DNA of 64,000 bases from Desulfobacterales bacterium (GCA_963674755.2 CAXXVS010000002.1:1920001-1984000); one strand, 5' to 3'. Positions 5,648 through 52,152 are shown, numbered from the stretch's first letter. The notes: generated from the sequence alone by a model not told the origin. A program made the numbers and translations.

Positions 5648-5677
5648 TCTCGTGAGCCCGGCCCAAAGGATCGCCCT

Positions 5678-6172: not shown

Positions 6173-6182
6173 GACGGGTGCG

Positions 6183-7156: not shown

Positions 7157-7275
7157 GAATTCTCCCTCCCGACCTCGCTCCGCAAGACATCATTCCATGC
7201 CGCCCGGCCACAGGGCAGCGCTCTTCATTGATGCTTCGCCCGCACCTTACTGGCCGGACCCGGCGAGCGCTTTCC

Positions 7276-14488: not shown

Positions 14489-14589
14489 AGGTGTTGCCCC
14501 CGTTGGGCGGGACCGTCGACGACATATTCATGTGCGGCGTGCGACGATCCCGCGTGGCACTAGCAAAAACGATCCATTCCGGACGGGCA

Positions 14590-15588: not shown

Positions 15589-15719
15589 TTCATTCCTCCT
15601 TTCGTCACCGCGTTGTTGGGCCGCTGCCACGCAAAGGCAACGGTGCTATCAAAGGCGGGGGGCCCGGCCTAAAAGAGTTGATGGCCGGCCGTTCCGTGTT
15701 GTTAGGGAGGGATCATGGC

Positions 15720-16913: not shown

Positions 16914-16996
16914 GCGCCTTCTCCTGTGTGTCGTTTGGATCGTTATGATTGATCTGAGTCCTCCATCAGCGGTAGAGGGCTCAAAGCGATACGAAT

Positions 16997-17012
16997 TGCA
17001 AAGGGGAGGCCA
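16997..17012 (-). promoter_or_regulatory. Sigma-54 promoter for the CoA-transferase/tctCBA operon
   Basis: Minus strand TGGCCTCCCCTTTGCA, canonical GG-N10-GC. Confidence 0.7.
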
Positions 17013-17096
17013 AACATGCCAAAAGGTTATAACCGACTGTTTAATCAGATAAATTCTGAAAAACCGCATGACCAACAACACTAGAGTGCGCCGAAA

Positions 17097-17146
17097 ATCT
17101 GAAAAAAACAGTCCAAAAAAAATGGAACTGTCTGAAAAAATCAGAC
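17097..17146. promoter_or_regulatory. Tandem A-tract palindromes, putative enhancer sites of the NtrC-type regulator
   Basis: GTCTGA-AAAAA-TCAGAC (17130-17146) preceded by GTCCA-A7-TGGAAC and TCTG-A7-CAG; about 85-135 bp upstream of the sigma-54 promoter. Confidence 0.55.
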
Positions 17147-17226
17147 CATTCCATCGCCCCGCATTGACCGTCAACACCCGGGGCGGATACGTTGCTTCGT
17201 ATCAAGGAACCTGATATCAAGCTCCC

Positions 17227-22304: not shown

Positions 22305-23471
22305 TCAAATGAAACGTTTCATGAGCTCGTCGATGGCCGCATCCACATTGCCGGCATGGATCCCGTACTGCCGGCAGGCCTGCGCCACCCGGTCCCGTCG
22401 ATCAGGTACCGCCAAGTCCGCCAGGCGGGTGAAAAGCCCCAGGCGGCGGCCCACCTGGTAGAGGACCTGCTCTTCCGGGGGCAAGGCCAGGAAATCCCGG
22501 ATGACCCGGGTCATGGCGGCTTTGTCCGCGGGCAGGCGGCCTTCCACCTCCTGGAAGAGATTGAGAATGTGGTCGCTCTTGATAATGCTGGAAATCCCCT
22601 CCAGATGTTCCAGGAAGAGCAGGGTTTCTTCCGCCATTTCACGGTCCGTCAGTTTGACGAAACGACCGGCCGCGGAATCCTCGTAGAGCGCGGTGTGGTT
22701 GGGAATGGCCAGGGTGCGCAGCCGGATGAAATCCGGATCGATCTGATTGAGGGCCTCGGCGGTCTCCAGGGCGTGCTCCCGGGAGAGATCCCGCCCCCCC
22801 AGGCCCGGCATGACGTATTCGGAGAGTTCCATCCCGGCCTGTTTGATCTTGCGGCCGGCCTTGATGTGAACGGCCTTGCTGACCCCCTTTTGCATGCGGG
22901 CCAGCACCCGGTCCGATCCGGATTCCAGCCCGATATGGATGCGGTTCAGACCGGCATCGGCATAAGCGCGCAAGTCCTCTCCTGCGATGCGGGCCACGGT
23001 GTGGGAACGGGCATAGGAGGTGATGCGTTCCACCGAGGGGAAACAGGCGCGCAAACGGGCCAGGACCTGCTTCAGGTCCTCCGGTTTGATGATCAGGCTG
23101 TTGGCGTCCTGGAGAAAAATGGAACGCATGCCGCCGGAGAACCAGTGCAGGGCCGCCTGGAAAGCGCCGTCGTCGCGCGGGACCACGCTGCTGCCCACCC
23201 GGTGCACATCATCGGGGGTGATGCGCCCTGCCCCGCCGGCTGCCTCCTGCAGGGCCGCGACGTAGCGCTGCACCCGATCGATGTCTTCGATCACATGGGC
23301 AACTGGCCGCAGAGAAAAGCGCCGGCCCTTGTAGACCGGGCAGAAGCGGCAGCGGTTCCAGGGGCAGTTGCGCGTTACACGGATCAGCAGACTGTCAGCT
23401 TCGCTGGGGGGCCGGATGGGACCCTGTTCGAAGCCCTGGTAGCGCTGCTTTTCTTCTCTGCTGGGGATCAT
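22305..23471 (-). CDS. Radical SAM protein of unknown function
   Basis: GPIRPPSEA.S, CPWNRCRFC (CxxxCxxC), FLQDAN, GLESG, SDHILN. Confidence 0.88.
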   Translation of the reverse strand: MIPSREEKQRYQGFEQGPIRPPSEADSLLIRVTRNCPWNRCRFCPVYKGRRFSLRPVAHVIEDIDRVQRYVAALQEAAGGAGRITPDDVHRVGSSVVPRDDGAFQAALHWFSGGMRSIFLQDANSLIIKPEDLKQVLARLRACFPSVERITSYARSHTVARIAGEDLRAYADAGLNRIHIGLESGSDRVLARMQKGVSKAVHIKAGRKIKQAGMELSEYVMPGLGGRDLSREHALETAEALNQIDPDFIRLRTLAIPNHTALYEDSAAGRFVKLTDREMAEETLLFLEHLEGISSIIKSDHILNLFQEVEGRLPADKAAMTRVIRDFLALPPEEQVLYQVGRRLGLFTRLADLAVPDRRDRVAQACRQYGIHAGNVDAAIDELMKRFI

Positions 23472-23583
23472 GATCGTCGTCTCCGCACGGAAAGCGATTG
23501 ATCCCCTTACATATCTTCAGGGTGGCGAAAAGTAAAGAATGCCGGCCGGTGGGCGCAGAAGCGGTCGGTCTATGCGCGCCGCT

Positions 23584-24882
23584 TCAGGGGCGCGCCGCTT
23601 GGCCAGCCGGGGGAGGCGGGGCGGCCGGGAGGGCCTCCTCGCCGGGCGCCGTCTTCTGCCAGCGGAAGCGGATCTTGGCCCCGCCATAGGGGCACTGGTC
23701 CACGCAGCGCAGGCACATGAGGCACTCGGCCATGGGAATCTTCGGCGATATGCCCTCCCGTAAGGCCTCCCGGTCGATAATGCCGGTGGGGCAGATATCG
23801 GCGCATTGCATACAGGAAAACTTCTTGCACTGCCGGGCGCCGATCACGATCTTGATCAGGCCCATGCGCGCGGCCAGGGCCAGCACCGCGCCCACCGGGC
23901 AGAAATAGCGGCACCAGCTCCGGCGCTGGCCCACTTCAAGGGCGGCCACCGCCGGGAAAATCGCCATCTGGACGCCCGCGAGCAGACCGTTGGGGCCGTA
24001 AGAGCGGCACAGGCTGCCGATGGGACAGACCGTACAAAAGGGTTGAAACCCCAGACCGGCACTGGCGCCCACCGCGCCGGCCAGCACCCCGTATTTGATC
24101 ATGCGGTTTTTAAGAAACCGGGGCAATCCGAACGTGGGGGTCACCTTGCCCACCAGGTCGAGCAAAAACCCGAAGGGGCAGATCCAGCCGCAAAACACGC
24201 GCCCCAGCAGCAGGGTCAGCACCATGAGGATCGCCGCCGACCCCAGACCGGTCAGCCACAGGGTCCGGGAGGAGGCCAGGTTCTGCAGAAAACCGGTGGG
24301 GCAGGCCAGGTTGACCGCCCCGGCTCGGAAATAGCAGAAGGTTCCCACGAACACCATCACCAGCAAAAAGAAGGCCAGGGCCTGAACCGGCCAGCGCAGC
24401 AGCCTGATCCAGCCGAAAGCCTTGCCCCGGGTAAGCTTGAGGGCCTTTTCCGGGCATTGCTTTACACATGCCGGGTCGCCGTTGCACAGATCGCACTTTT
24501 CGACGCGGCCGGTCTCCGGATCTTTCAAGGGCGCCGCTTCCGGACAGGCCAGAGCGCACAGGCCGCAGTCCGTGCAAAGACGCCGCTCGATGCGCACGAT
24601 TCCGTCTTCCCCCTTGGCAATGGCACGGGTGGGACAGACCGCCATGCACAGGGGGTCCCGGCAGTGCTGGCAGTAAATGGCAAAGTTTCGGCCGTCCTTC
24701 TCCGCCGTGAGCACACGGATGGCTGCGACCGCCGGGCCGTCCTCCAGGGAATGCCGGTTGGCGCAGGCGGTCACGCATTCGCCGCAGCCCGTACAGCGCG
24801 CCGGATCGAACAGCATCACCGGCGGCCGGCGGGGCAGCTTGCGCTTCCCGGTCCGGGGCCGCAGCTCTTCCATGGTGATCAT
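23584..24882 (-). CDS. Fusion of a 4x[4Fe-4S] DmsB-like ferredoxin and a NapH/MauN-like membrane Fe-S domain
   Basis: N-terminal CTGCGECVTAC, CQHCRDPLCMAVCP, CTDCGLCALACP, CDLC..CVKQCP; then TM helices with GRVFCGWICPFG, WCRYFCPVG and a C-terminal 2x[4Fe-4S]. Start uncertain. Confidence 0.8.
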   Translation of the reverse strand: MITMEELRPRTGKRKLPRRPPVMLFDPARCTGCGECVTACANRHSLEDGPAVAAIRVLTAEKDGRNFAIYCQHCRDPLCMAVCPTRAIAKGEDGIVRIERRLCTDCGLCALACPEAAPLKDPETGRVEKCDLCNGDPACVKQCPEKALKLTRGKAFGWIRLLRWPVQALAFFLLVMVFVGTFCYFRAGAVNLACPTGFLQNLASSRTLWLTGLGSAAILMVLTLLLGRVFCGWICPFGFLLDLVGKVTPTFGLPRFLKNRMIKYGVLAGAVGASAGLGFQPFCTVCPIGSLCRSYGPNGLLAGVQMAIFPAVAALEVGQRRSWCRYFCPVGAVLALAARMGLIKIVIGARQCKKFSCMQCADICPTGIIDREALREGISPKIPMAECLMCLRCVDQCPYGGAKIRFRWQKTAPGEEALPAAPPPPAGQAARP

Positions 24883-24901
24883 CGTTTCGACTCCGTTGGC
24901 T

Positions 24902-25414
24902 CTATCCAGCATCGTGTTTCCGCTGCTCTTGTTGTTGGTCTGGCCGCAGGGAGGGAGCCCCAGCGTTGTGCCGGGCATACCGGTGCTGCCGGCATACGGC
25001 ACAGGTGGCCAGGTAATCCCCGGCGGGATGGCCCAGACGCGCCTGGACAAAGGCCTCCACCGGCCGGGGCACAAAGGGCGTGCCACAGATGGCGCAGGGG
25101 CGGATCTGGTCATCCCGGCCCGTTTCGACGGCCAGCCGGCGCAATCCCTGGATCAGGTCCCGGCAACTGACCCCTTCCGGGCAGACATCGGTGCCGGCAT
25201 TGCATCCGGTGCAGCACCAGATGGCCGGATCCTGGAGAAGGTCGTCGTCCGTCAACGCCCTGCGGATGATGCCCCGGGGCGACATCTCCCACCGGAAGTC
25301 AGGGTACATTTCCACCATGGGGCAGGCCGCCACGCACTTGCCGCACTCCACGCAGCCCCGGGCGCCCGTGGCCGTCAGGATGGCGTCCATTTTTGCTTTC
25401 AGGGATTCGGACAT
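24902..25414 (-). CDS. HdrC-like 2x[4Fe-4S] protein
   Basis: CVECGKCVAACP, SPRGII, IWCCTGCNAGTDVCP; extra C-terminal CxxC pairs. Confidence 0.75.
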   Translation of the reverse strand: MSESLKAKMDAILTATGARGCVECGKCVAACPMVEMYPDFRWEMSPRGIIRRALTDDDLLQDPAIWCCTGCNAGTDVCPEGVSCRDLIQGLRRLAVETGRDDQIRPCAICGTPFVPRPVEAFVQARLGHPAGDYLATCAVCRQHRYARHNAGAPSLRPDQQQEQRKHDAG

Positions 25415-27447
25415 GTCGCCTCCCTGACGATTTGGGCCGCACAGGCCTTGAATTCAGGCACCTCGGAAACCGGGTCCAGAGCATTGTTGGTCAAGGCGTC
25501 GGCCGGCGCTTCGTTAAAATGAAAGGCGGCAAACACCGTCCCCGCAGCCACCTTCGGCACCACCCGGGCCGTGGTCATTATGGCGCCGCGTCGCGTCTCG
25601 ACCCGGATGCGGTCCCCGTCACAGATCCCCCGGCCTTGTGCATCCTGCGGGTTGACCTCCACAAAGGGTCGGTCCACCTCGCGCTGAAGGGACGGGGACC
25701 GTCGCGTCATGGTGCCGGTGTGGTAATGGCAAAACATCCGGCCGGTGATCAGCACCAGCGGATAGCGCTCGTCCGGCATCTCCCGGGGGGGCTGGTAGTC
25801 CGGTACCACGAACAGGCCCCGCCCCCGGGCGAATTGTTCCTGGTGCAGCACGGCCGTCCCTGGATGATTGGTATCCGGACAAGGCCACTGCAAGCCCCCT
25901 GCGTTCAGCCGCCCGTAGCGGATGCCGCCATAGGAGGGCGTCAGCGATGCGATCTCGTCCATGACCGCGGCGCTGTCGGCATAGCTGAAATCCAGGCCCA
26001 GGGCCTGTCCCACCCGGCACAGGATCGTTAAATCGTCCCGGGCGTCTCCCGGCGGATCCACGGCTTTGCGGAGGCGCTGCACCCGGCGCTCGGTATTGGT
26101 AAAGGTGCCCTCCTTTTCGGCAAAGCAGGCCGCCGGCAGCACCAGGTCGGCCAGGCGCGTGGTGTCGGTAGGAAAGATGTCCTGGACCACCAGGAAATCG
26201 AGCCGCTTTAGAAATTCAATGGTGTGCCGCTGGTCGGGGTCGCTCATCACCGGGTTCTCCCCCATGATATAGGCCGCCCGGATCGGGCTTTCGGCAGCAG
26301 CCATGGCCGCGGTCACGGTCAGGCCGGGTTCCGCCGGCAGCGAACCGCCCCATTGCGCTTCGAAGCGGGCCCGCACGCGGTCATCGTCGACCTTCTGGTA
26401 GCCGGGCAGCACATTCGGCAGCCCCCCCATGTCGCAGGCCCCCTGGACATTGCATTGGCCGCGCAGGGGGCAGATGCCGGCCTGGGGCCTGCCCACCTGG
26501 CCGCACATCAGCGCCAGATTGCACACCGCAAATACATTGGCCGTGCCGCACACATGCTGGGTAATGCCCATGCAAAAAACGATCATGGCCGCGGGCGCCC
26601 GGGCGTAATCCTCGGCCACCTGCCGGATCAGCTCCGGCGCCACGCCGCATACCGTTGCGGCCCGCTCCGGCGCCCAATCGTCCAGGTGGGCAGCAAGGGC
26701 CGCCAACCCCTCGGTGCGCTGATCGATAAAGGTCTGGTCCGCCAGTCCGTTGGCCAGGAGGTGATGCATCATGCCGTTAAAAAGCGGGATGTCGGTGCCG
26801 GGCCGCAGGGTCAGATGGAGATCGGCGTTCCTGGCCATTTCCGTGGTCCGGGGATCGATCACCACCAGCCGGGCCCCTTTTTCCCGGGCCCGGTAGATTT
26901 CCCCCATGGCCACCGGAAAGGTCTCGGCCGCGTTGGATCCGACGGCCAGGATGAAATCGGTATTGGCAAAATCCGCCAGGGAATTGGTCATGGCGCCGCT
27001 GCCCAGGGCCCGGCCCATGGCCGCCACGGTGGGGCCGTGGCAAAGACGGGCGCAGTGGTCCACATTGTTGGAACCGAAGCCCCGACGGATCAGCTTCTGG
27101 AACAGGTAGTTCTCCTCGTTGGTGCAGCGGGCCGAGCAGAGGCCGCCCACCGCGCCGGCACCATGGCGCTCCGCCACCTCACCCAGCCGCCCTACCAGGA
27201 CGTCGATGGCCTCGTCCCAGGAAATGTCAACAAAACGCCCGCCCTTTTTCAGCAGGGGTGTCGTCAGCCGGTCCGGATGGTGGATAAATTCGCCGGCCGA
27301 CCAGCCCTTGATGCACAAGGTGCCCTTGGAGACAGGATGCCCCCGGTCCGGCTGGCAGCCCACCACCCGGCCGTCGCGTACCGTCAGGATGAGGCCGCAG
27401 CCGGTACCGCAATAGGGGCAGATGGTTTTTACGAAATCAGGTCCCAT
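25399..27447 (-). CDS. fdhF: Formate dehydrogenase alpha subunit (FdhF type, Cys ligand, no Tat signal)
   Basis: TICPYCGTGC, LCIKG, NNVDHCARLCHGPT, RGQCNVQG, GTFTNTERR, YHTGTMTRR, PEFKACA. Confidence 0.93.
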   Translation of the reverse strand: MGPDFVKTICPYCGTGCGLILTVRDGRVVGCQPDRGHPVSKGTLCIKGWSAGEFIHHPDRLTTPLLKKGGRFVDISWDEAIDVLVGRLGEVAERHGAGAVGGLCSARCTNEENYLFQKLIRRGFGSNNVDHCARLCHGPTVAAMGRALGSGAMTNSLADFANTDFILAVGSNAAETFPVAMGEIYRAREKGARLVVIDPRTTEMARNADLHLTLRPGTDIPLFNGMMHHLLANGLADQTFIDQRTEGLAALAAHLDDWAPERAATVCGVAPELIRQVAEDYARAPAAMIVFCMGITQHVCGTANVFAVCNLALMCGQVGRPQAGICPLRGQCNVQGACDMGGLPNVLPGYQKVDDDRVRARFEAQWGGSLPAEPGLTVTAAMAAAESPIRAAYIMGENPVMSDPDQRHTIEFLKRLDFLVVQDIFPTDTTRLADLVLPAACFAEKEGTFTNTERRVQRLRKAVDPPGDARDDLTILCRVGQALGLDFSYADSAAVMDEIASLTPSYGGIRYGRLNAGGLQWPCPDTNHPGTAVLHQEQFARGRGLFVVPDYQPPREMPDERYPLVLITGRMFCHYHTGTMTRRSPSLQREVDRPFVEVNPQDAQGRGICDGDRIRVETRRGAIMTTARVVPKVAAGTVFAAFHFNEAPADALTNNALDPVSEVPEFKACAAQIVREATCPNP

Positions 27448-28289
27448 GACGTTTCCTCGATGGAATCGGTCCAATCGGGAAGGGCAATCTCCTGCGCCGG
27501 CGCATCGATATAGTTGGCCAGCAGCGGCGACAACCGCTCCGCTTCCGTCCCAGCGTCGTACTGATAGCTGCGCTGCAGGGCGTTTCGCAGGGGAAGCTGC
27601 AGCAGCATCAGCGGGATGCCCACCGGGCAGGCCTCCTGACAGGCGCCGCAGGCCACGCAGGCATCGGCCACATGCATGGCCCGCACCAAATGGAAGGTGA
27701 GCATGTCCGGCGCGATCTCGCCCGGCGCCGTCCACACACGATCCTCCAGTTTGCAGCTCTCGCAATGGCACACCGGACAGGCATTGCGGCAGCCGTAGCA
27801 CTTGATGCAGCGGGAAAACACCTCCTGCCATTTGGCAAGCCGGACGGCACGCTCCCCGCCCAGGTATTGGCGGACCAGGTCGCTGCGGGACAGATCGGCG
27901 CCGGCCGCCTTTTCACCTGCGTCCACCCGGGACGGCCAAGGACGCCGGCACAGGCAGCGCTGGGCCTGGGCGGCTGAGCAGGCCACCCCGATCATGTGCA
28001 GACGTCCGGGATCGAGGCGGTGGCGTTTGCCCAGTTCCACCAGGGCCCGTTCGTCACAGCCCCGGCACACCACTGCCAGGCGGTAACTCTCCGGGGTCTG
28101 GACCAGCACGGACAGCGCGATTTTGGCCAACACCCATTTGGGCTCCAGCACCAGAGCGGCCAGCGCGTCGGCCTTGTCGAAGACCCGGGGCGCCACGCCG
28201 TCCTCATCCCCGGCAAGCCCCAGGACCCCGTCGGCGGTTTGATGTTCGAGTATGTCCCGGGCCATCCCGCGGACCGTATCAAGCGTCAT
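27429..28289 (-). CDS. FdhB/FlxD-like Fe-S subunit
   Basis: RGCDER, CIKCYGCRNACPVCHC, FHLVRAMH, CVACGACQEACPVGIP. Confidence 0.75.
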   Translation of the reverse strand: MTLDTVRGMARDILEHQTADGVLGLAGDEDGVAPRVFDKADALAALVLEPKWVLAKIALSVLVQTPESYRLAVVCRGCDERALVELGKRHRLDPGRLHMIGVACSAAQAQRCLCRRPWPSRVDAGEKAAGADLSRSDLVRQYLGGERAVRLAKWQEVFSRCIKCYGCRNACPVCHCESCKLEDRVWTAPGEIAPDMLTFHLVRAMHVADACVACGACQEACPVGIPLMLLQLPLRNALQRSYQYDAGTEAERLSPLLANYIDAPAQEIALPDWTDSIEETSWDLIS

Positions 28290-28773
28290 CGCCCCAACCT
28301 CCAAGGACAGGGTCCGTCTTCGTCACCCGGCACGTCAGGGCGGACAGGGCCGCTATCCGCTGGGAAAAGCGCCGCATCAGGGCCGCGAACTGGTGGCCTT
28401 CATGGGCGGTCCCGAAACTGGTCAACAGCCGGTCCGCGCCGATCCCCACGGTTTCGAGCAGGGTGGTCAGCAGGGCCATGCGTTTGGCCGCGGCATGGTT
28501 GGCCCGGTTGTAGCGGCAGCCGTCCAGGTGACAGCCCAGGACCGCCACCCCCTCCGCCCCGGCGGAAAAAGCCTTGAGGATGACATCCGGATCGACCCCG
28601 GCGGCGCATTCCACCGGCACGCAGCGGAAACCCGCCGGCATGGGCAGCCGTTGCCGCCCGGCCTCGTCCGCGCCGATCCCGGAACACCACCGGCAGGCAA
28701 AGACCAGGATTTTCGGATCGGCCCCATCCTGGGGTCGGTTTGCGATCGTTTTTTCGGTGACGCATGCGGTCAT
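28279..28773 (-). CDS. mvhD: MvhD-like [2Fe-2S] subunit (Cys, no Sec)
   Basis: KILVFACRWC, VPVEC, GAEGVAVLGCHLDGCRY; ATGA overlap with the hdrA stop. Confidence 0.88.
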   Translation of the reverse strand: MTACVTEKTIANRPQDGADPKILVFACRWCSGIGADEAGRQRLPMPAGFRCVPVECAAGVDPDVILKAFSAGAEGVAVLGCHLDGCRYNRANHAAAKRMALLTTLLETVGIGADRLLTSFGTAHEGHQFAALMRRFSQRIAALSALTCRVTKTDPVLGGWGDDA

Positions 28774-30515
28774 TGGTCGGCAACCCTCCCCTGAATAGTG
28801 CGGCAAGGGCGGCCATCCTGCCGGCCGGCAAAGGCATCCGCCACGATACGGACCATCGCACGGAATCCGTTTTCCGGCAGGACGGCGCTCTGATTGGGAC
28901 AGACGGCCGCACAGCTGCCGCACCCCATGCAGCGCACCGGGTCCACCATCGCCCGCCAGCCGGTTGGGGTCTGTTCCAGACGGCAGGCCGTAAACGGACA
29001 GACTGCCACACAATTGCCACAGCCCGTGCAGGTCTCCGGCAACACCTGGGCACAGGCCGCACGGGCCTTCTGAAAACTGATCAACTCGGAGGCCCGGCAG
29101 ACCGGGCGGGACACCAGATGCAGGGCCTTGGCGGCCGCGGCCCGGCCCTGGGTCATGGCCCCTTCGACCATCACCGGCCAGCGCGCGGCGCCGCATACAA
29201 ACAGGCCCGGGGCCGAGGTTTCCACCGTGTGCAGAAAGGGCTGCACCCGGTAGAAGCCGTGGCGCTCCGCCGGGAGCGGGATGGCCCGGTTCTCCCGGGG
29301 CTCCAGCGGAGTGCTGAGCACCACGCGCTGCGCTGCGATCGAGCGCTCCCGGCCGGACAGGGCATCCGCGACCGTTACGCCGGTGACCTTGTCTCGGCCT
29401 TCGATACGGGGCGGCTCCTGCGGATCGAAGCGGATGAACAGTACCCCGGCGGCCGTGGCCCGGCGGTACAGGGCCTCCAGCTGGCGGCCGGGGCTCATGA
29501 TGTCCCGGTGCAGAATGGTCACCGCCATTCCGGGATCGCCCTCCTTCAAGCGGATGGCGTTTTTGAGGGCCGCCGGACAGCAGACCGCCGAACAATAGGA
29601 GCGCTCCTGGTTGCGGACATTCACACACTGGATGAAAACCGTGTCCCCGCCGATGGGTCCACCGTCCCGGAAGGCCTTCTCCATTTCCATGCCGCTGATC
29701 ACCCCGGGCAACTCGCCGTAGCGGTAGATGCCCCGGGAGAGCCGCGGCTTGGCCCCGGTGGCCACGATTACCGCCCCGGCCGTGAGATGCGTCTCCCCGT
29801 TCTTGCCGGACAGACGGGCCTCAAAATTTCCGGCGCTGCCGCTGAGCGCCGCCACCCGGGTGCCGAGATGCACCTGGATATGGGGATCGTTTTGGATCGC
29901 TTCCACCAGCGGCTCCCGCATGGCGTCCGCGCCCTGGTTCGACGGCGTCACCCGTCCGAGGTAGTTCAGCATGCCGCCCAGCCGGCCGGTCGCTTCCACC
30001 AGGGTCACAGCGACCCCGGCGCGCCCCAGGGCCGCTGCCGCGGCCAGGCCGGCCGGCCCGCCGCCCATGACCAGAACGCGTTGGCAGACCGCGATGTCAA
30101 TATCCGGCGGAGCCTCGCGGTAGCGCAGGGCCGTGATGCCCATACGGATCAGGTCCGCGGCCTTGGCCGTGGCCGCCTCTGATTGAGCGGCGTGAATCCA
30201 GGCGCATCCCTCGCGGATATCGGTGACCATCACCCGTGCGGGATCGACGCCGTAAGCTTCGAGGCGGTCGATCAGGTCCTCGCCCCGGGCCAGTGGGGAG
30301 CAGCCCGCGATCAGGAGCCGGGTTCCGTTGTCGGCTTGCATGCGTCGGGCCAGGTTGGCCAGGATATCGCCCAAGCACAGGGCGTCACAACTCTCGACGG
30401 AAGCCACCCGGTCATCACCGGCCAACTGCCGTTGCAACCGGTTAAAACTCACGATATCGCCGATCTCCCCGTGGCAGCGGCATAAGATGCAATTAACGAC
30501 AGGGAAAGCGGTCAT
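28770..30515 (-). CDS. hdrA: HdrA-like flavoprotein (N-terminal Cys domain, C-terminal 2x[4Fe-4S])
   Basis: CRCHGEI, AGCSP, IREGCAWIH, GGGPAGL, FIQCV.R..YCSAVCC, CTGCGNCVAVCP, CMGCGSCAAVCP. Confidence 0.88.
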   Translation of the reverse strand: MTAFPVVNCILCRCHGEIGDIVSFNRLQRQLAGDDRVASVESCDALCLGDILANLARRMQADNGTRLLIAGCSPLARGEDLIDRLEAYGVDPARVMVTDIREGCAWIHAAQSEAATAKAADLIRMGITALRYREAPPDIDIAVCQRVLVMGGGPAGLAAAAALGRAGVAVTLVEATGRLGGMLNYLGRVTPSNQGADAMREPLVEAIQNDPHIQVHLGTRVAALSGSAGNFEARLSGKNGETHLTAGAVIVATGAKPRLSRGIYRYGELPGVISGMEMEKAFRDGGPIGGDTVFIQCVNVRNQERSYCSAVCCPAALKNAIRLKEGDPGMAVTILHRDIMSPGRQLEALYRRATAAGVLFIRFDPQEPPRIEGRDKVTGVTVADALSGRERSIAAQRVVLSTPLEPRENRAIPLPAERHGFYRVQPFLHTVETSAPGLFVCGAARWPVMVEGAMTQGRAAAAKALHLVSRPVCRASELISFQKARAACAQVLPETCTGCGNCVAVCPFTACRLEQTPTGWRAMVDPVRCMGCGSCAAVCPNQSAVLPENGFRAMVRIVADAFAGRQDGRPCRTIQGRVADQ

Positions 30516-31735
30516 CGAACCACCTCCGTCAGGGTCTCCATGGCCGCCGCCGAACCCTGGACCGCCGCCGTCTCCACATCGGCCGGTGCCTTGCAGAAGC
30601 CGCAGCTTCGAGCCCCGGGAACGTCTTCTGCCACAAAACCGCCCGCGGCAAGGCAGGAGGCCTCCACGGCCTCGGGTACGGCCGGTCGCAGGCCGCCGTT
30701 CAGCACCACCAGATCGAAGCGTTCCATGGCCGGCGTCCGGGTGAGGGTGTTTTCATACTTGACGGCGATCCCGTCGCCGCCGGGCAGGGGGTAGACCAGT
30801 CCCGGCCGGGCACGGACCATTTCGATGCCTTCGGCAAGGGCCGCCTGGCGGAAATAGGTTTCGTAGCCGTGCCCCTCGGTCCGCAAATCCGTATAGAAGA
30901 TTACGCACCGGCCATCGCCCTGGCGGCGCCGCACCCAGCGGGCCTGTTTGAGGGCATGCATGCAACAGACCGCGCTGCAGTGGGACTGCAGCCGCCGGTC
31001 GCGCGCTCCGGCGCACTGGATGAACGCCACCCGGGTGGCCGGCCGGCCGTCGTGACAGCGGATCGCCCCCTGGTTGGGACCGGCCTCGGCGATCCAGGTT
31101 TCAAAGGCCAGGGCATCCATGATGTCCGGGTGGCTGCCGGCACCGAATTCCGGGGCCGGCGCCAAATCGGCCGCCTCAAACCCCGTGGCCCAGATCACGC
31201 CGCCAATCCGGAGCCGCTGCGCCTCGGCCGGACGATGCAGATCCACGGCGCCCGTGGGACAGGCCTCGCTGCAACGGCCGCAGCCGGTGCAGCGTGCCGC
31301 ATCGATCCGGAAGACCGGCGGATAGACGTGCGGCGCCGTCAATGCCACGGCGTTTTCTTCGCATGCCGCCGCACACCGTCCGCAGCAGATGCAGCGCTCA
31401 GGATCGATGGCGTTGGGCGACGTGTGCAGCACCGCGGTCTGAAAGCCCTCGCCGGGCATCAGTTCGGAAACAGTGGTCCAGGTGTGAACGCTGATCCGGG
31501 GATGGCGCCGACAGAGGCGGGCCTCGGACCAGACCGGGCAGAAACCGCAATGATCGGTGGGGTAGAGTTTGTCCAGGTGCGCCGTCCGGCCGCCCAGTTC
31601 GCCGGCGCGCTCCACCAGATGGACGCTTCGGCCGGCCCGGGCCAGGTCGAGGGCCGCGCTGATGCCGGCCACCCCGCCGCCCACCACCAGGACGGGATCG
31701 GCAATGGCATCGGATTGGGCGGGCTGTTCCATCAT
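30512..31735 (-). CDS. hdrA: Short HdrA-like flavoprotein with ferredoxin insert
   Basis: VLVVGGGVAG, LDKLYPTDHCGFC, two CxxCxxCxxxC motifs, FIQCAGARD..HCSAVCCM. Confidence 0.85.
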   Translation of the reverse strand: MMEQPAQSDAIADPVLVVGGGVAGISAALDLARAGRSVHLVERAGELGGRTAHLDKLYPTDHCGFCPVWSEARLCRRHPRISVHTWTTVSELMPGEGFQTAVLHTSPNAIDPERCICCGRCAAACEENAVALTAPHVYPPVFRIDAARCTGCGRCSEACPTGAVDLHRPAEAQRLRIGGVIWATGFEAADLAPAPEFGAGSHPDIMDALAFETWIAEAGPNQGAIRCHDGRPATRVAFIQCAGARDRRLQSHCSAVCCMHALKQARWVRRRQGDGRCVIFYTDLRTEGHGYETYFRQAALAEGIEMVRARPGLVYPLPGGDGIAVKYENTLTRTPAMERFDLVVLNGGLRPAVPEAVEASCLAAGGFVAEDVPGARSCGFCKAPADVETAAVQGSAAAMETLTEVVR

Positions 31736-32433
31736 TCCGTCCCCTCGGGGTCTTTCAACCCGTGGTTGCGGGCGATTTGTTCCAGACGCTTACCGAACCA
31801 GGTCACGAAATCGTCCTGTTCGAACTCATAGGGCCCGAGCCGGTCTTCGGGACGCATGGCAATTCTCTTTTCCGGCGCCGGGTAGCGTTTGGGATCCTCA
31901 TAGGCCACCCGGATCGCGAGGGGCTGGGTGGGACAACGGCGCACGCAGGCCCCGCAGCCGTTGCAGCGTTCGGCGATCACCACCGGATAGCGGCGCTTTT
32001 CCAGTTTGATGGCCTTGGCCTCGCAGGCCTGATAGCAGTCCTTGCAGCGCTTCTTCTTCAGCCAGGCCAGGCAGGTGTCCTGGTCGATGACGGCGTTGCC
32101 GATATCGACCTCGGCCTTGGGAACTTTGGTAATGGCGCCTGTGGGGCAGGCCCGGACGCATTCCATGCAGAAAATGCAATGGCTCGGATCAAGCACCGGC
32201 GTGCCCAGATTGACGATGCCCTCCATAAGCGAAGCCGGACGCAAGGCGCCGGCCGGGCAGGCGTCGATACAACGGTAGCAGCGGGCACAGGCCTTGCGAA
32301 AGTCGTCTTCCTCCAGGGCGGCCGGCGGCCGGGGCAGGGCCTTGGCATGCCCCACCTTCAGCAATCCGAAAAAGGTGCCGGAAAGGGCCGCACTGACCAG
32401 AAAATGAAGGAAATCTCTACGTGGGGGTTCCAT
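31732..32433 (-). CDS. NapG/MauM-family ferredoxin with twin-arginine signal
   Basis: PRRDFLH Tat motif, LPRPPAA, CARCYRCIDACP and three further Fe-S motifs. Confidence 0.85.
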   Translation of the reverse strand: MEPPRRDFLHFLVSAALSGTFFGLLKVGHAKALPRPPAALEEDDFRKACARCYRCIDACPAGALRPASLMEGIVNLGTPVLDPSHCIFCMECVRACPTGAITKVPKAEVDIGNAVIDQDTCLAWLKKKRCKDCYQACEAKAIKLEKRRYPVVIAERCNGCGACVRRCPTQPLAIRVAYEDPKRYPAPEKRIAMRPEDRLGPYEFEQDDFVTWFGKRLEQIARNHGLKDPEGTE

Positions 32434-32524
32434 GGCGCCTCACGCGATCCTGCTGTCTAGCTGTCAGTTGCCGAAACCGGGGCCGCGCCGCCCGCCGGCG
32501 CGGCCCCGTGTTTTATGACATCCC

Positions 32525-34321
32525 TCAGGCCGCCGTCTGCACATCGTCGACGGCGAACTCAAGCCCCAGCTCCTTAAGGGTTTTCTCCGTGGGGATGCCG
32601 TTGTCGTCCCAGCCGAAATAGGCATAGTAGTCGTCCTGCACCTTTTTCATCTCGGCGGGGGAAAACACCGCTCCCTTTTTGGGCCCTTCCGGCAGGGGCT
32701 CCGTCAGCATCCGCTTGGGCAGGGTATCGTCCTTGCGGCTGGTCCCCTCCCGGACATTGAAGCAGCGCTCCAGGGTCCGGATGCGGCGGGCCGTAGCCAT
32801 CAGCTCGGCTTCGTCCATATCCCATCCGCAAAGGGGATTGAGCATGTCCACAAACATTTGGGGCGACCAGTAGCCCCCCACAAAGCTGCAGATCACCAGC
32901 GAGTTGTGCAGGCAGCGCTGGGCCTGTCCGGCCGGACTGTTGCCTTCGTGGTGGTCCCCGCCGCAGGTGCCCATGGCATAGCTGACCCCGCGGGGTTTGT
33001 CGCCGCGCGGATCGTGGGCCGCCATTTCCTTGCCCTTGACCACGCAGGCAAAATCCGCAGCGTTGCCGCCCAGTTCCTTGGCCATGGCGGAAACCCCCTG
33101 GGCCAGGAATTGTCCGGCCTGGCCCTCCTTGTAGGCGATCTTGCGGACCAGTTCGATCACGGCCTCGCCGTCGCCCCACTCGAGGGTCATGCCGTCAAAC
33201 TTGTCGGCCGTGAGCAGACCCCGCTGAAACGCTTCCATGGCAAAGCCGATACAGCCGCCGGTGGAGATGGAATCCAGCCCCATGGCGTCGCACAGCTCGA
33301 TGGCCGCCATCATCAGGTCGAAATCCGCCAGCCCCAGGTTGCTGCCCAGCAGTCCGCCGGTTTCGTACTCGGGCCCTTCGGCGATGAGGCCGTCATAGTC
33401 GCCGCCCCGGATCACCCCGAGCTTCATGCAGTGGTTCGGGCAGTTGTAGCAGGCGCTGTGTTTTTTCCAGAACCGGCGGTTGGCCTCTTCCGCCCCGATC
33501 TCCTCGACATCCGGATACCAGGTCGTCTGAAAGTTCTTGGTGATCAGGGAGCCGGTAACATGGTTTTTGAATTCCAGCAGGCCGGCCGTCCCCCAGCGTT
33601 TGAGTCCCTGCCAGCCTTCTTTCTTGATGGAAAACTGTTTGTTGGCCTCGGCCGCCTTGTTAAACGCATCACGGTCCACCACCGGCACATAGCGGGTCCC
33701 CCGCAACGCGATCGCCTTGAGCTTCTTGCCCCCCATCAGGGCACCGGTGCCGGTCCGGGCCGCCGCCCGGAAGCGTTCCACCATCACGGCGGCGTATCCC
33801 ACCTGGTTTTCTCCGCCGGGACCAATGGAGGCCACCTTGACGTAGGGGTCCTTGACTTCTTCGAGAATGGTCTCTTCGGTCACATGGGTATCTTTACCCC
33901 ACAACTTGCCGGCGTCCTTGAATTCGACCTTGTCGTTGCGGACGTACAGGTAGACCGGCTTTTTCGATTGGCCGGTAATCAGAATCCCGTCCCATCCGGC
34001 CCACTTGAGTTCGTTGCCGATAAAACTGCCCACTTCGGCATGACTTAAACGCCCGGTATAGGGACTCTTATTGACAAAGCTGCAGCGGGTCGAAGCACAG
34101 GCCGTTCCCGACAGGGGACCGGCCCCCATGAAGATCGGGCTGTCCGCCGCCATGGGGTCGTGCTTGGGCTTGAGCCGCTGGAACAGCAGATAACAGCCCA
34201 GACCGGCCCCGCCGATGTAACGCCGACAGGTATCCTCATCGATCGCCAAGGTTTTGTAGGTCTGCGTGGTCAAATCGACTTCGAGAACCCGTCCGAAATG
34301 GCCGCCTTTGGGATTTGCCAT
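32525..34321 (-). CDS. aor: Tungsten-dependent aldehyde:ferredoxin oxidoreductase family catalytic subunit
   Basis: KSPYTG, ELKWAGWDG, IGPGGE, AARTGTGA..KKLKAI, CYNCPNHC, EGPEYET, GLDSIS, YY..GWD.NGIP; no signal peptide. Confidence 0.93.
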   Translation of the reverse strand: MANPKGGHFGRVLEVDLTTQTYKTLAIDEDTCRRYIGGAGLGCYLLFQRLKPKHDPMAADSPIFMGAGPLSGTACASTRCSFVNKSPYTGRLSHAEVGSFIGNELKWAGWDGILITGQSKKPVYLYVRNDKVEFKDAGKLWGKDTHVTEETILEEVKDPYVKVASIGPGGENQVGYAAVMVERFRAAARTGTGALMGGKKLKAIALRGTRYVPVVDRDAFNKAAEANKQFSIKKEGWQGLKRWGTAGLLEFKNHVTGSLITKNFQTTWYPDVEEIGAEEANRRFWKKHSACYNCPNHCMKLGVIRGGDYDGLIAEGPEYETGGLLGSNLGLADFDLMMAAIELCDAMGLDSISTGGCIGFAMEAFQRGLLTADKFDGMTLEWGDGEAVIELVRKIAYKEGQAGQFLAQGVSAMAKELGGNAADFACVVKGKEMAAHDPRGDKPRGVSYAMGTCGGDHHEGNSPAGQAQRCLHNSLVICSFVGGYWSPQMFVDMLNPLCGWDMDEAELMATARRIRTLERCFNVREGTSRKDDTLPKRMLTEPLPEGPKKGAVFSPAEMKKVQDDYYAYFGWDDNGIPTEKTLKELGLEFAVDDVQTAA

Positions 34322-34323
34322 GA

Positions 34324-35040
34324 TCAGGACCTCCTTTCGCCGTCTTCATTGGGGTAGAACATGTCGATGATCAGGTCTTCACCAGCTTGCTGCGGCGTGA
34401 CGTTCCGGTAGGACTGATTCACCCCGAAGCCGAGTTTGCCGGCCATCAGGCAGGGCCCCACCGGATTGCCGGATTGGGCTTCGCAGGCCTTTACACACTC
34501 GGGATCCCCATCACAAAGGTCACACATCAACGGCAATCCGTTTTCCTCGTCCCGCCGGATGAATTTCGACGGGCAGGCTTCGATGCATTTGTTGCATTTG
34601 GCACCGAGACAGAGCTTGGCATCCAGCTTGATGCCGTTGGTCTTCTCATCTTTCTGGATGGCTTTGGGGTTGGTGGGGCAGGCCTTGATACAGGGCGCAT
34701 CGTCGCAATGCCAGCAGATCACCGGGACATCGACCACGCCTTTGTGCTTGTAAACGTGAATCCGCGATTTGGCCGGCCATACCACCTTCTCGTGGTGCAG
34801 GCTGCAGGCGTATTCGCAGGCCCGGCACCCGACGCAGTTCTGCCGCTCGGCAAACAAATACCGCATCTGGGGGTTCGGTTGGGCCGGCTCGGCAGCCGCC
34901 GCCGACCGCCGGGGCGGCCCAATCGTGGTGGACGCCAGAGCGATTCCGGCCGCGGTGCCGACTTCCTTTAAAAAGGTCCTGCGACTGGTCTTCTTATCCA
35001 GAAACTTGTCGCTTCCGCTATCCATCGGTTTCTTCTCCAT
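34324..35040 (-). CDS. DmsB-like Fe-S subunit of the AOR with twin-arginine signal
   Basis: SRRTFLK Tat motif plus h-region and Ala-rich cleavage site; CVGCRACEYAC, CWHCDDAPCIKACP, CNKCIEACP, CDLCDGDPECVKAC; AAGGAGG RBS. Confidence 0.88.
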   Translation of the reverse strand: MEKKPMDSGSDKFLDKKTSRRTFLKEVGTAAGIALASTTIGPPRRSAAAAEPAQPNPQMRYLFAERQNCVGCRACEYACSLHHEKVVWPAKSRIHVYKHKGVVDVPVICWHCDDAPCIKACPTNPKAIQKDEKTNGIKLDAKLCLGAKCNKCIEACPSKFIRRDEENGLPLMCDLCDGDPECVKACEAQSGNPVGPCLMAGKLGFGVNQSYRNVTPQQAGEDLIIDMFYPNEDGERRS

Positions 35041-35556: not shown

Positions 35557-36207
35557 CTATTCGGAGGTATAGCCTTTACGGATGGCGTACTTGACGAGAT
35601 CGGCCAGGCTTTTCAAGCCCAGCTTCTTCATGATGCTGGCCCGGTGGTGTTCCACGGTCCGGGTACTGATGCACAACAGGTCGGCAATCTCCCGATTTGG
35701 GGCTCCCTCGGCAATCAATTTGATGACCTCCGATTCGCGGACTGTCAGCGGAGGGGCATCCAGCCGGCCGCCGCTGCGTGCCAGAAAAGCCAAACCTTCG
35801 GTCAAATCCTGCTGTAAAAGGGGCGAGAGGAATTTTTTGCCCTGACGGACGGTCTCCACGGCCAGGAGCAGTTCGGTATCCGAATCCTCTTTGAGAAGGT
35901 AACCGTCGGCCCCGGCGGCAAAGGCGTGGTAGATGTATTCGCGGTTTTTATGCATGGAAACCACCAGAATCCGCATGGGGGGGTATAGGGAGCGGATCTC
36001 GCGGACCGCTTCGATGCCCCGCAAGCGGGGCATGGCCACATCGACCAGCACCATGTCCGGGGTCATGCGCTGCAGCAGTTTCAGCAGTTCCAGACCGTCA
36101 CCGGCCTCGCCGATCACCTCCAGATCCGGCTGGCTGTCGATCATCATCTGCAATCCCCGACGCATGAGGATGTGGTCGTCCGCGATGACGATGCGGCAGG
36201 AGGTCAT
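35557..36207 (-). CDS. NarL/FixJ-family response regulator
   Basis: IADDH, DVAMP, GYLLK, LTVRESEV..IAEG..NREIA..L.IS.RTVEHHR. Confidence 0.93.
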   Translation of the reverse strand: MTSCRIVIADDHILMRRGLQMMIDSQPDLEVIGEAGDGLELLKLLQRMTPDMVLVDVAMPRLRGIEAVREIRSLYPPMRILVVSMHKNREYIYHAFAAGADGYLLKEDSDTELLLAVETVRQGKKFLSPLLQQDLTEGLAFLARSGGRLDAPPLTVRESEVIKLIAEGAPNREIADLLCISTRTVEHHRASIMKKLGLKSLADLVKYAIRKGYTSE

Positions 36208-36208
36208 G

Positions 36209-37813
36209 TCAGCGAACCCCTTCATCGATCGGGATGGTCACCCGGAGGCAGGTACCACGGCCGGGGTGGGAGTCGACCACGAGCCGACCGCCGAGCATAC
36301 GGGCGCGCTCTCCCATGGTGACGAGACCGAAACCGTCTGTGGGGGATTGCCGCCGTCGCGCCCCATCCGGATCCATGCCCTTGCCATTGTCGGTGATTTC
36401 ACAGCATACGCTCCCCGGGGTGCGTTGCATGGCCACCCGCACCCGGGAGGCCTCGGCGTGCTTGTAGATGTTGTTCAAGGCTTCCTGGAAAATCCGGTAA
36501 ATCATCAATTGGGCATCCCGGCGGAAGATATGGTCGACATTGTCCAACTCCACGGAAAACGCGCAATCCAAATACCGGACGAACTCCTCGAACAGCCAGC
36601 GCAGCGCGGCATTGAGCCCGAGATCCTCCAGAACCGCCGGCGTCAGATCATGGCAAAGCCGGCGGACGTTGTTAATGATGCCCGCTATATAGGTCAGGGT
36701 CTGTTCGCAATCGGCGCGCAGGTCGTTTTGGGCCGGCTCCAGCTTCATCTGGACGGCCCGGACCTGGAGCTTCAGCAGGGCCAGGGACTGCCCAAGTTCG
36801 TCGTGCAGGGCCCGGAAAATACGGTGACGCTCCTCCTCCTGGGCCTCGATCAGCTTCGAGGACATGCTGCGCAATTCACGGGTGGTGTTGCGGGCGGCCC
36901 CATCGGCATTTTCGCGTTCCACCGCCAATGCCAGCATATTGCCCACCCCCTGGAGAAAATCGATATCGATCTGGGAAAACGGCCGCGGCCGGGTGGCAAA
37001 GGCCCCGACCACGCCATATTGTGCGGATTCCCGGCGGACCGCCACGATCACCCCGCTCACCGCACCGAGTTTTGCGACCAGGGGGAATGCGTCCCGGAGA
37101 AGGGGGGCTTCGTTCAGGTCCTCGATCACCACCGGAGCATCAAATGTCATCGTGCACCGGAGTCGTTGGGGATAGCCGTCTTCACCGGTCAGGCTTCGGA
37201 CGACATTTTTTTCCCTGACTGCGCCGGCATGCATCTGATAACCGTCACCGTCTGGCAGAGCATCCAGAATCAGACCATATTCGACCCCCAGCACCTCGGC
37301 AACCATTGCGGCCGCCTCATCGAACAGGCGGTCGCAGGCAATGCCTGAAAGGGCCCGTTGGCCAAGATCCACGACGGCCTTCTGCTGAAGGACACGACAA
37401 TCGAGTTCGGCCTCGGTACGCTTCATCTCGCTGATGTCCACGGCCAGACCGGCCACACCGATAATGTCGCCCGCTTGGTTGTAAAAAGGAATTTTCTCGG
37501 TGCGCAGCCAGCGCTGCGTGTCGGTTATATGGGTCATCGTAATGTTGCGTTTGGGTCGGCCGCTCTCGATCACCTCCCGGTCATCTTCCCAATAGGCCGT
37601 GGCCATCCCGGGATCGGAAAGGAAATCGCCCACCGATTTTCCGATGATCTCCTCCTTGGGCAATCCGACCGCCTCGGCATAGGCGCGGTTGACCTGGACG
37701 AAACGATTGTCCCGGTTTTTGAAGAAGACCATGGCGGGAACCGCATCGAGCAGGCGTTCCCACTCTTTGCGAAGCCGCTGAAACTTCATGTCGTTTGGTG
37801 TTTCCTGCCCCAT
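36209..37813 (-). CDS. Cytoplasmic PAS-GAF HisKA_3 sensor kinase
   Basis: PAS and GAF; QEEER..RALHDELGQ, YRIFQEALNN, DNGKG, FGL..MGER. Start uncertain (37813 or 37858). Confidence 0.9.
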   Translation of the reverse strand: MGQETPNDMKFQRLRKEWERLLDAVPAMVFFKNRDNRFVQVNRAYAEAVGLPKEEIIGKSVGDFLSDPGMATAYWEDDREVIESGRPKRNITMTHITDTQRWLRTEKIPFYNQAGDIIGVAGLAVDISEMKRTEAELDCRVLQQKAVVDLGQRALSGIACDRLFDEAAAMVAEVLGVEYGLILDALPDGDGYQMHAGAVREKNVVRSLTGEDGYPQRLRCTMTFDAPVVIEDLNEAPLLRDAFPLVAKLGAVSGVIVAVRRESAQYGVVGAFATRPRPFSQIDIDFLQGVGNMLALAVERENADGAARNTTRELRSMSSKLIEAQEEERHRIFRALHDELGQSLALLKLQVRAVQMKLEPAQNDLRADCEQTLTYIAGIINNVRRLCHDLTPAVLEDLGLNAALRWLFEEFVRYLDCAFSVELDNVDHIFRRDAQLMIYRIFQEALNNIYKHAEASRVRVAMQRTPGSVCCEITDNGKGMDPDGARRRQSPTDGFGLVTMGERARMLGGRLVVDSHPGRGTCLRVTIPIDEGVR

Positions 37814-38011
37814 GCACTCTCTCGGAAAGCCCCACCTAACCGGCACCGTTATTTTCATTCCTGGAAGGCCTACTCTCTGGCATAATCAGATTCGATTTTT
37901 TTTTCAACGCCAAAGGCGAGCGGCAACCCGGGCGATTCGGCTTTGACAACAAACGCCGGCATGCCTTATGGTAGTCCTTCTGATACGATGTAACACAGGA
38001 AATGATGAAGA

Positions 38012-52134: not shown

Positions 52135-52152
52135 CATTTTAGCTGTCAGACC

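Follow-up and report, generated by a model that had tools for sequence, protein, structure and literature searches.

A conserved ten-gene block joins genes for a predicted exported tungsten-oxidoreductase-family enzyme, NapGH-like proteins and a tandem-HdrA formate dehydrogenase module

Gene content of the locus

We analysed a 64,000-nucleotide stretch of a Desulfobacterales bacterium genome (GCA_963674755.2, CAXXVS010000002.1:1920001-1984000; hereafter the window, from whose first letter positions are counted), which carries on its minus strand, at 22305..35040, a run of eleven genes that places an enzyme of the aldehyde/tungsten-containing oxidoreductase (AOR/WOR) family beside relatives of NapG, NapH, heterodisulfide reductase (Hdr) and formate dehydrogenase (Fdh). 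Open reading frame (ORF) calls and Pfam- and TIGRFAM-type models recover these genes in the order and with the families given in an initial annotation of the sequence, and ten of them, from worS to napH, form a unit that is conserved across genomes.

In the direction of transcription, the block opens with a WorS/AorA-type Fe-S small subunit (34324..35040; Fer4_11, with a twin-arginine (Tat) signal), the AOR/WOR large subunit WorL (32525..34321; AFOR_N and AFOR_C, without a signal peptide of its own) and a NapG/MauM-type Fe-S protein (31732..32433; twin-arginine signal and a conserved C-terminal extension). Two HdrA homologues follow, HdrA1 of 407 aa (30512..31735; aligning to 5ODC_A 143-560) and HdrA2 of 581 aa (28770..30515; with a two-part alignment to 5ODC_A), and then a 164-aa [2Fe-2S] adaptor of the MvhD/FlpD type (28279..28773; PF02662 122 bits, VhuD model 71 bits), a shortened FdhB/ElpB-type Fe-S subunit of 286 aa (27429..28289; 7bkb_E 8e-33, 8rvu_E 3e-31) and FdhA, a predicted cytoplasmic formate dehydrogenase alpha subunit of the Cys type (25399..27447; TIGR01591 809 bits, cut-off 666). 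The unit closes with an HdrC-like protein (24902..25414; an HdrC fold over residues 1-102 followed by a four-Cys tail and a helix) and a ferredoxin-NapH fusion (23584..24912; NapH models 105-108 bits, below their cut-offs).

The genes are co-directional and mostly overlapping, as had been described: between napG and napH each of the seven junctions is an overlap of 4 to about 19 bases, and gaps of 2, 91 and 112 bases separate worS from aor, aor from napG and napH from the eleventh gene, which encodes a radical SAM protein. Longer ORFs of 449, 810 and 509 aa are upstream extensions of mvhD, fdhA and napH, whose true starts lie further in.

Conservation of the block across genomes

A search of 185,579 species genomes with the AOR returned 43 loci, 38 of them with an AOR identity of at least 50%. 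The order worS-worL-napG-hdrA1-hdrA2-mvhD-fdhB-(fdhA)-hdrC-napH is kept in every one of the 24 loci that reach napH (two of which start inside or just before worL), with fdhA in place in 23, and it persists from 93% down to 50% AOR identity; the remaining 14 loci, cut short by contig ends, are all consistent with it. The five distant AORs (28-34% identity) have no downstream gene of the block beside them. A reciprocal metagenome scan with the ferredoxin-NapH fusion was confined to the best 79 loci of 565 matches, and all nine of those with a close fusion and at least 8 kb of upstream DNA hold the AOR together with all of the block. With a profile built on the HdrC-like protein, matches came from two of 400 genomes of the phylum (nine candidates scored per genome); both hold the block with its AOR, fdhA being displaced behind napH in one of them. 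Across these searches (24/24, 9/9 and 2/2 loci) the aor/napG and hdr/fdh halves, which the initial annotation had joined in one operon, stay together.

The hosts belong to Desulfosarcina, Desulfobacteraceae and Desulfomonilia, and mostly to Syntrophales/Syntrophaceae, and they include two cultured species, Desulfosarcina widdelii PP31 and Desulfosarcina alkanivorans PL12. The distribution is patchy: a close AOR was found in none of 60 relatives (two distant matches, 37-40%) and the AOR of the block in none of 12 same-genus genomes. The host genome of the window (6.7 Mb) carries aprBA-qmoABC-sat, which makes the host a sulfate reducer, and the closest relatives of its AOR are in Desulfosarcina.

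The exported module

All 33 WorS and all 34 NapG orthologues have the twin-arginine motif, which is missing throughout the other eight subunit sets (22-36 rows each). Residues R20, R21, F23 and L24 of WorS are invariant in 34 rows, and TatC is encoded in the genome. The signals are thus on exactly the two proteins expected outside, in line with the Tat export first assigned to the Fe-S protein and NapG, and WorS would likely carry WorL out with itself. NapG scores 79-87 bits with the NapG models, below their cut-offs; its R5, R6, A30 and 16 Cys are invariant, as are W212 and R216 in the C-terminal extension.

WorL belongs to the WOR/AOR family by its AFOR_N and AFOR_C domains, its cluster Cys and the catalytic Glu and His that align to Pyrococcus AOR: C291, C294, C298, C478, R79 and E320 are invariant, and H457 and E318 are kept in at least 90% of 32 rows. 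Its best solved relative is 1aor, at 380 bits against 209 for BamB, a difference that rules out BamB orthology. 'Aldehyde' and 'tungsten' are used here as family labels, predicted for WorL rather than assigned to it; a TupA-like gene in the genome scores 350 bits on a partial stretch (cut-off 400).

Class V WORs are defined by a Tat-bearing WorS, occur in clade 41 alone and have no assigned activity (PMC13328260). WorL scores 204 bits with the YdhV model NF007354 (cut-off 868) and 136 bits by BLAST, and a single clade of WorL with E. coli YdhV is rejected with p-AU 0.03, a value that has to be read with YdhV being a long branch and the sole clade-41 row of the AOR tree. The WorL clade is supported at 100/100 and is sister (89/98) to AORs that are also accompanied by a twin-arginine WorS, as seen for locus L138; in another member of the sister clade, L090, WorS is truncated. 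Because a Tat-type WorS and membrane subunits are present but WorL lies outside the YdhV branch, we classify WorL-WorS, on its sequence features, as a Class V-like enzyme on another branch.

Besides this AOR, the host genome has nine or more further genes of the AOR family, including a nearly identical pair (C3:2327246 and C3:2650280). In some other loci a second WorS-WorL pair lies directly upstream of the block, a close paralogue in L015, L017, L029 and L036 (~5400-8000) and a distant AOR (~33%) in L007-L009 (~6500-9100).

In 17 of the 24 napH-reaching loci, napH is succeeded by a short AOR-family gene that the window does not have. Its 27 full copies (404-450 aa; for example L068:11296-12609) all keep three cluster Cys and all lose the Arg79 and His457 positions, Glu320 being lost in 20. 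Since the pterin and catalytic positions are gone and the predicted [4Fe-4S] site is retained, the product is a cofactor-less WorL. With the query used, no short WorL was found in trans in the host genome (G000), G061 or G062; the same search gave a 27% match in G065 and longer AORs only in G063.

Simpler loci suggest how the block came about. L087:7131-11295 and L088:645-4848 are minimal units of Tat-WorS, WorL, NapG and a plain NapH, without the fused domain and without Hdr, and their WorL sits on a separate branch. In L090:567-9161 and L091:1518-10900, WorS-WorL and NapG are followed by a cysteine desulfurase, tatC, a GltD/NfnB-like flavoprotein and then napH; together with the window, where seven genes lie between napG and napH, they indicate that the exported-WOR/NapGH module has been paired more than once with a cytoplasmic flavoprotein. 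We infer from these arrangements that the Hdr-Fdh module was inserted into an exported-WOR/NapGH unit and that NapH gained its N-terminal Fe-S domain.

A divided HdrA and its formate dehydrogenase arm

HdrA1 comprises an FAD domain with an inserted ferredoxin at residues 108-170 and the Cys197-equivalent and lacks the terminal domains, whereas HdrA2 has the N-terminal cluster domain, an FAD domain and a C-terminal ferredoxin and lacks the inserted ferredoxin and the Cys197-equivalent. In HdrA1, C63, C66, E212, K263, C241, C253, C257, C258 and eight ferredoxin Cys are invariant in 33 rows; in HdrA2 the same holds for C12, C14, C47, C72, E279 and K318 in 29 rows. Both proteins keep the residues aligned to Glu356 and Lys409 of methanogen HdrA, which we take to act at the flavin site, and the reading of HdrA as the flavin subunit is borne out to that extent. 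The two are predicted to be complementary halves of one heterodimer. The pattern itself is known, since complementarity of Cys197 and the N-domain has been described for tandem and fused HdrA (PMC9012536).

HdrA1 and HdrA2 align to the first and second halves, respectively, of the fused HdrA proteins of 1007 and 1011 aa in the same genome. In a tree of 31 rows (10 orthologues of each, drawn from 33 and 29, with paralogues from one genome only), HdrA1 groups with the first halves of fused HdrA (86/84) and HdrA2 with the second halves (90/82), while QmoA and QmoB fall together (100/98), which rules out QmoA/QmoB orthology of the pair. The module had been described as Qmo-like. That description stands for the layout of a short HdrA, a long HdrA and MvhD without HdrB (407, 581 and 164 aa, compared with 423 for QmoA and 780 for QmoB in the same genome), but goes no further, the HdrA pair grouping with the two halves of fused ~1000-aa HdrA and apart from the genome's own QmoA and QmoB. 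QmoC models match none of the block proteins, and aprBA-qmoABC is on another contig. HdrB, reported as lacking from the operon, is indeed absent: of 29 matches to CCG (HdrB-type) in the genome, none is inside the window.

Two further Hdr clusters of the host are recorded here for their architecture. L128:5411-10743, on contig C1, is a second Qmo-like cluster, in which an MvhD-like protein and HdrA proteins of 438 and 616 aa are joined by a QmoC-like one (199 bits against a cut-off of 300), with no aprBA within the 15 kb examined. On contig C2, L129:8162-11749 encodes a double HdrA of 1196 aa that is interrupted by a response-regulator receiver domain at about residues 235-350.

The best matches of FdhA and FdhB are the Hdr-linked Fdh of methanogens, the best solved match of FdhA being 9t1s_L (1e-216). 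K47, C136, H137 and R329 of FdhA are invariant in 23 rows, and the orthologue in L026 has a TGA at the catalytic Cys position. FdhB keeps 15 invariant Cys (24 rows) in 286 aa, compared with 380-414, and contains no FrhB/FdhB Pfam domain at E 0.001.

The HdrC-like protein and the ferredoxin-NapH fusion

The HdrC-like protein superposes on 7bkb_C with a VIA Z of 13.4 (root-mean-square deviation (rmsd) 2.0, 94 aligned residues), the match being confined to residues 1-105. G74, C107, C110, C138, C141, R142 and N150 are invariant in 23 rows and C84 is kept in 22; Gly74 stands at the third Cys of the second HdrC cluster motif, and the structure model places a helix at 139-151 in the tail. The tail does not match the FdhB profile. 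A HycF-type tail is unsupported: HycF matched HdrC residues 18-35 only and was absent from the tail matches. In the genome of L132 the four-Cys tail looks broken or lost, the HdrC-like match at L132:13195-13524 stopping at residue 111 in an open frame of 132 aa.

The ferredoxin-NapH fusion is the sole block protein with hydrophobic segments above 1.9, and both CX3CP motifs and eight C-terminal cluster Cys are invariant in 22 rows. As in NapGH, NapG is of Tat type and NapH has two clusters besides two CX3CP motifs, with scores below the curated NapG and NapH cut-offs. The fused N-domain, at residues 30-165, is a WorS/HycB-type Fe-S domain without a signal, predicted to be cytoplasmic, which matches 8c0z_C (3e-32) and 9mqx_E (2e-27) ahead of HycB (2e-18). 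An AlphaFold model of the fusion has a pLDDT of 38.5, too low for use. No settled role is known for the cytoplasmic clusters of NapH. For an archaeal NapH homologue, an electron role facing the cytoplasm has been suggested (PMC4543118).

In WorABCSL, a four-Cys zinc finger and a helix dock the bifurcating module on WorS (PMC12318220). The HdrC-like tail has a comparable outline, with four Cys and a helix, and the next gene starts with a WorS-like domain. By anatomical analogy, the tail may dock on the WorS-like domain of NapH, replacing HdrB.

Borders and neighbouring genes

The aor-napG spacer holds a GC hairpin (32478..32508, minus strand) of 13 GC pairs, with z -2.6 when set against 200 dinucleotide shuffles. 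By comparison with mononucleotide shuffles, a weaker control, the spacer reaches z <= -2 in 29 of 34 orthologous loci. The hairpin is possibly a partial terminator or a stabiliser of the mRNA. Apart from the 2-base worS-aor gap, this spacer is the one place inside the block where neighbouring genes do not overlap, so any break would fall there and not between napG and hdrA. A sigma-70 scan remained at chance level (3 found, 2.8 expected).

The radical SAM gene (22305..23471, minus strand; PF04055) was counted as an operon member in the initial annotation, an assignment that we do not retain: among five related genomes, its orthologue lies near napH in one only, 1.3 kb after it, is far off in two and has no close match in two. 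It is a neighbour outside the conserved block. In the D. alkanivorans block (L006/L134), a MoaA-type gene stands between napH and the radical SAM orthologue.

Upstream of worS, a PAS-GAF histidine kinase and a LuxR-type response regulator (35557..37858, minus strand) recur in L004, L006, L007, L008, L009 and L011 and not in the other loci; the pair is likely a regulator in part of the range and not a core component. Downstream, beyond a hybrid kinase and a sigma-54 regulator, a CoA-transferase family III gene is followed by tctC, tctB and tctA (12462-17177, minus strand). Elsewhere in the window, a 516-aa ORF at 54877-56427 on the plus strand resembles, by eye only, a group II intron reverse transcriptase/maturase; it lies inside a low-GC stretch at 52000-60000, where GC falls to 0.39 at 52-54 kb.

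A proposed mechanism

On these grounds we propose that the ten genes encode one membrane-spanning complex, in which electrons from an outside oxidation and from ferredoxin would be merged at HdrA and used to reduce CO2 to formate. It is our leading interpretation, tentatively held and falling somewhat short of an even chance. The predicted exported WorSL would oxidise a low-potential substrate, likely an aldehyde, and its electrons would cross through NapG and then NapH to the cytoplasmic HdrA1/HdrA2. The HdrA flavin would merge them with those of reduced ferredoxin (confurcation), and the merged electrons would leave through MvhD and FdhB to FdhA, where CO2 would likely be reduced to formate.

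In published work, the flavin of one HdrA is reduced by its partner's arm; the central cluster is the exit for the high-potential electron, and the low-potential electron passes to the inserted ferredoxin on the flavin's side (PMC12350162). With solved Hdr structures as a guide, and the ports assigned after Extended Data Fig. 5 of PMC12350162, HdrA2-MvhD-FdhB-FdhA would form a single mobile arm and the mid-potential port, HdrA1 would hold the working flavin, HdrC would serve as the high-potential port and the inserted ferredoxin of HdrA1 as the low-potential one. The ferredoxin input would let the inward run proceed against the membrane potential, and, with protons freed outside and used inside, that run would separate charge. 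The reaction would be reversible; a plausible alternative mode for sulfate reducers is the oxidation of formate with both ferredoxin and quinone being reduced.

The CO2/formate couple lies at about -420 mV under standard conditions. With aldehyde/acid and ferredoxin both at ~-500 mV (PMC13328260), menaquinone at ~-75 mV and a membrane potential of ~150 mV (PMC3333476), an outside electron would arrive at ~-350 mV after paying the membrane potential and, averaged with one from ferredoxin, at ~-425 mV. The first value is too weak by itself for CO2 at standard state and the second is enough, which would give a reason for HdrA in the path. The more specific claim, that the path from the exported WOR, a member of a branch so far not classed as exported, through NapG and NapH to the HdrA flavin, and with ferredoxin on to CO2, is a charge-separating wire independent of quinone, we regard as doubtful.

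Evidence for and against a single complex

The gene-order evidence (24/24 loci, 9/9 in the reciprocal scan and 2/2 with the HdrC profile), the complementary HdrA pair and the WorS-like fusion on NapH together likely favour a single complex. The same is suggested by napG and napH standing on either side of the Hdr-Fdh genes, with napG running into hdrA1.

Several observations weigh against this interpretation. The loci are kin and partly redundant (L020 and L057 have identical identities, and some may be one organism), so the counts show conservation and not independent origins, and a conserved hairpin stands between aor and napG. The sole Tat-type WOR with a published test, CsWOR41L, assayed as the large subunit only, showed no activity on 46 aldehydes (PMC13328260). 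The docking of the HdrC-like tail is argued from anatomy, because its match to WorA is weak by structure (9mqx_A 200-247: VIA Z 3.1, rmsd 5.0, 46 residues) and absent otherwise: a profile of the tail alone recovers no WorA and no HycF at E <= 10, and Foldseek lists neither for the tail. In most relatives the short cofactor-less WorL is another likely partner of the WorS-like domain. NapH with NapG has been characterised as a quinol-oxidising unit and not as a through-membrane wire (PMC5928378), and a route via the menaquinone pool would yield only ~-290 mV with ferredoxin at -500 mV, which is marginal and would need very low formate. HdrB-like genes occur in two other Hdr clusters of the genome (L126 and L129; TIGR03288 127 and 186 bits, below the cut-off of 345). 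Finally, fdhA is missing from the block of D. alkanivorans, which has a stand-alone FdhA elsewhere (49% identical, with an in-frame TGA), and it is displaced behind napH in L133, L069, L083 and L084. Such losses and displacements suggest that the end of the arm is exchangeable; hdrC directly precedes napH in every rearranged locus.

The alternative that survives best consists of two modules meeting at one quinone site: WorSL-NapG would reduce menaquinone through NapH, and the Hdr-Fdh block, anchored on the same NapH, would bifurcate electrons from formate to ferredoxin and menaquinone, the electrons mixing in the quinone pool without obligatory coupling to WorSL. It accords with the description of NapH and NapG as quinol-oxidising (PMC5928378) and with the stand-alone WorS-WorL-NapG-NapH loci L087 and L088; QmoC is built on the plan of an HdrC-like domain linked to a membrane part that reacts with quinone (PMC3333476), and electron flow from formate to ferredoxin and menaquinone would be downhill and would suit sulfate reducers such as the host. 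Yet no AOR-free Hdr-Fdh-NapH block was seen among the loci with enough upstream DNA (9/9, 2/2), and syntrophs would have to make good the ~400 mV lost on entry to the quinone pool. We consider these two modules unlikely, if still deserving of serious attention.

Electrons might instead flow outwards, the N-domain of NapH sitting on the inserted ferredoxin of HdrA1, so that formate electrons would reach WorL and reduce an acid or another hard substrate, while HdrC would serve an HdrB/HdrD-type protein in trans. Methanogen polyferredoxins such as MvhB bind the inserted domain of HdrA (PMC12350162), BamB is a WOR driven reductively through HdrA-like subunits (PMC13328260), the genome has HdrB-like genes and its 29 CCG matches, and the membrane potential would favour outward flow. 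Those HdrB-like genes, however, sit in hdrCB clusters of their own; HdrC matches solved HdrC over 1-105 only, with a different tail and an altered second cluster motif; hdrC overlaps the start of napH and adjoins it in every rearranged locus; and the AOR is much closer in score to AOR/WOR than to BamB. An outward wire is improbable on this balance.

Least probable are co-regulated neighbours without electron exchange, with worSL on its own transcript ending at the hairpin and napG-napH as a second unit, for although the spacer is structured in 29/34 loci, extra WorS-WorL pairs stand upstream in L007-L009, L015, L017, L029 and L036, and the sister Tat-WorS/WorL pair of L138 has no NapGH match beside it, the predicted exported NapG has no other partner within the block, the hairpin lacks a U-run on the coding strand and the sole promoter-like match inside the block falls within the end of napG, the order is kept from 93% to 50% AOR identity, and extra WorSL would accord with the 3:1 ratio found in WorABCSL (PMC12318220).

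Significance and comparison with known systems

If the path is such a quinone-independent wire, the complex would be the first of HdrA type to draw electrons from the periplasm, its NapH the first shown to conduct between both faces of the membrane, and syntrophs and sulfate reducers would have a new redox loop. Should the proposed complex be real, an outside oxidation would be coupled in a new way to charge separation and the reduction of CO2. Among the Syntrophales loci recovered the block is common, and for the syntrophic genus Smithella, bifurcation or confurcation in place of Rnf was proposed in a 2026 survey (PMC13685792). WorL keeps the catalytic residues of aldehyde-oxidising WORs, in a setting where Tat-exported WORs are without assigned activity or role (PMC13328260). 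Many bacterial HdrA proteins occur without HdrB, and the block bears on the identity of their high-potential partner; it also offers NapH clusters with an extra Fe-S domain fused to them and a defined cytoplasmic partner encoded next door. D. alkanivorans PL12, which lacks fdhA in the block, and D. widdelii PP31 form a natural comparison.

Pereira et al. 2011 reportedly list hdrA-fdh clusters in sulfate reducers, so the cytoplasmic half may already be in print. In the literature accessible to us we found no published description of the gene set, and subscription reviews on HdrA modules may cover its cytoplasmic half; the accessible parts of PMC13685792 and PMC5109826 do not describe it, and in the main text of PMC13328260, as available, NapH and heterodisulfide are absent and the two mentions of Hdr concern benzoyl-CoA reductase (BCR). 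All parts are of known family, and tandem HdrA and Tat-type WORs have been published; the composite is conserved and uncharacterised.

Its cytoplasmic half is closest to the Fdh-MvhD-HdrABC complexes of hydrogenotrophic methanogens (7BKB, 9T1S, 5ODC; Elp-Hdr 8RVU), which provide the best solved matches for FdhA, FdhB, HdrA, HdrC and MvhD and share the flavin-site and cluster residues. It differs from them in a split HdrA, a single arm, a short FdhB without a detected F420/FAD domain, the absence of HdrB and the extra tail on HdrC, and a membrane anchor and an exported module are added. With QmoABC, for which confurcation has been proposed (PMC3333476), the block has in common two HdrA homologues, MvhD, an HdrC-like domain, a membrane subunit and the lack of HdrB, but its membrane subunit is of NapH type in place of the haem b QmoC, and its partners are Fdh and WOR instead of AprAB.

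On the exported side, Class V WORs (E. coli YdhYV, CsWOR41) likewise have a Tat-type WorS, a signal-less WorL and further membrane subunits; they have been reported from clade 41 only (PMC13328260), and the WorL of the block is outside the YdhV branch. NapGH, MauMN and NosGH also pair a NapG of Tat type with a NapH that carries two C-terminal clusters and two CX3CP motifs, and lack the WorS-like fusion of NapH, the NapG extension and the seven genes between napG and napH. The class II BCR BamBCDEFGHI is the one characterised joining of a WOR to HdrA-like subunits (PMC13328260); the block contains neither an HdrB-like BamD nor BamGHI, includes Fdh and NapGH, and its WOR is predicted to be exported. 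In WorABCSL of Acetomicrobium mobile (9MQX), WorSL feeds a bifurcating flavin module whose adaptor docks on WorS, but that complex is cytoplasmic, with a Bfu/HydABC-type core and NAD and ferredoxin as acceptors, whereas the module described here is of HdrA type and would have the membrane between it and its WOR.

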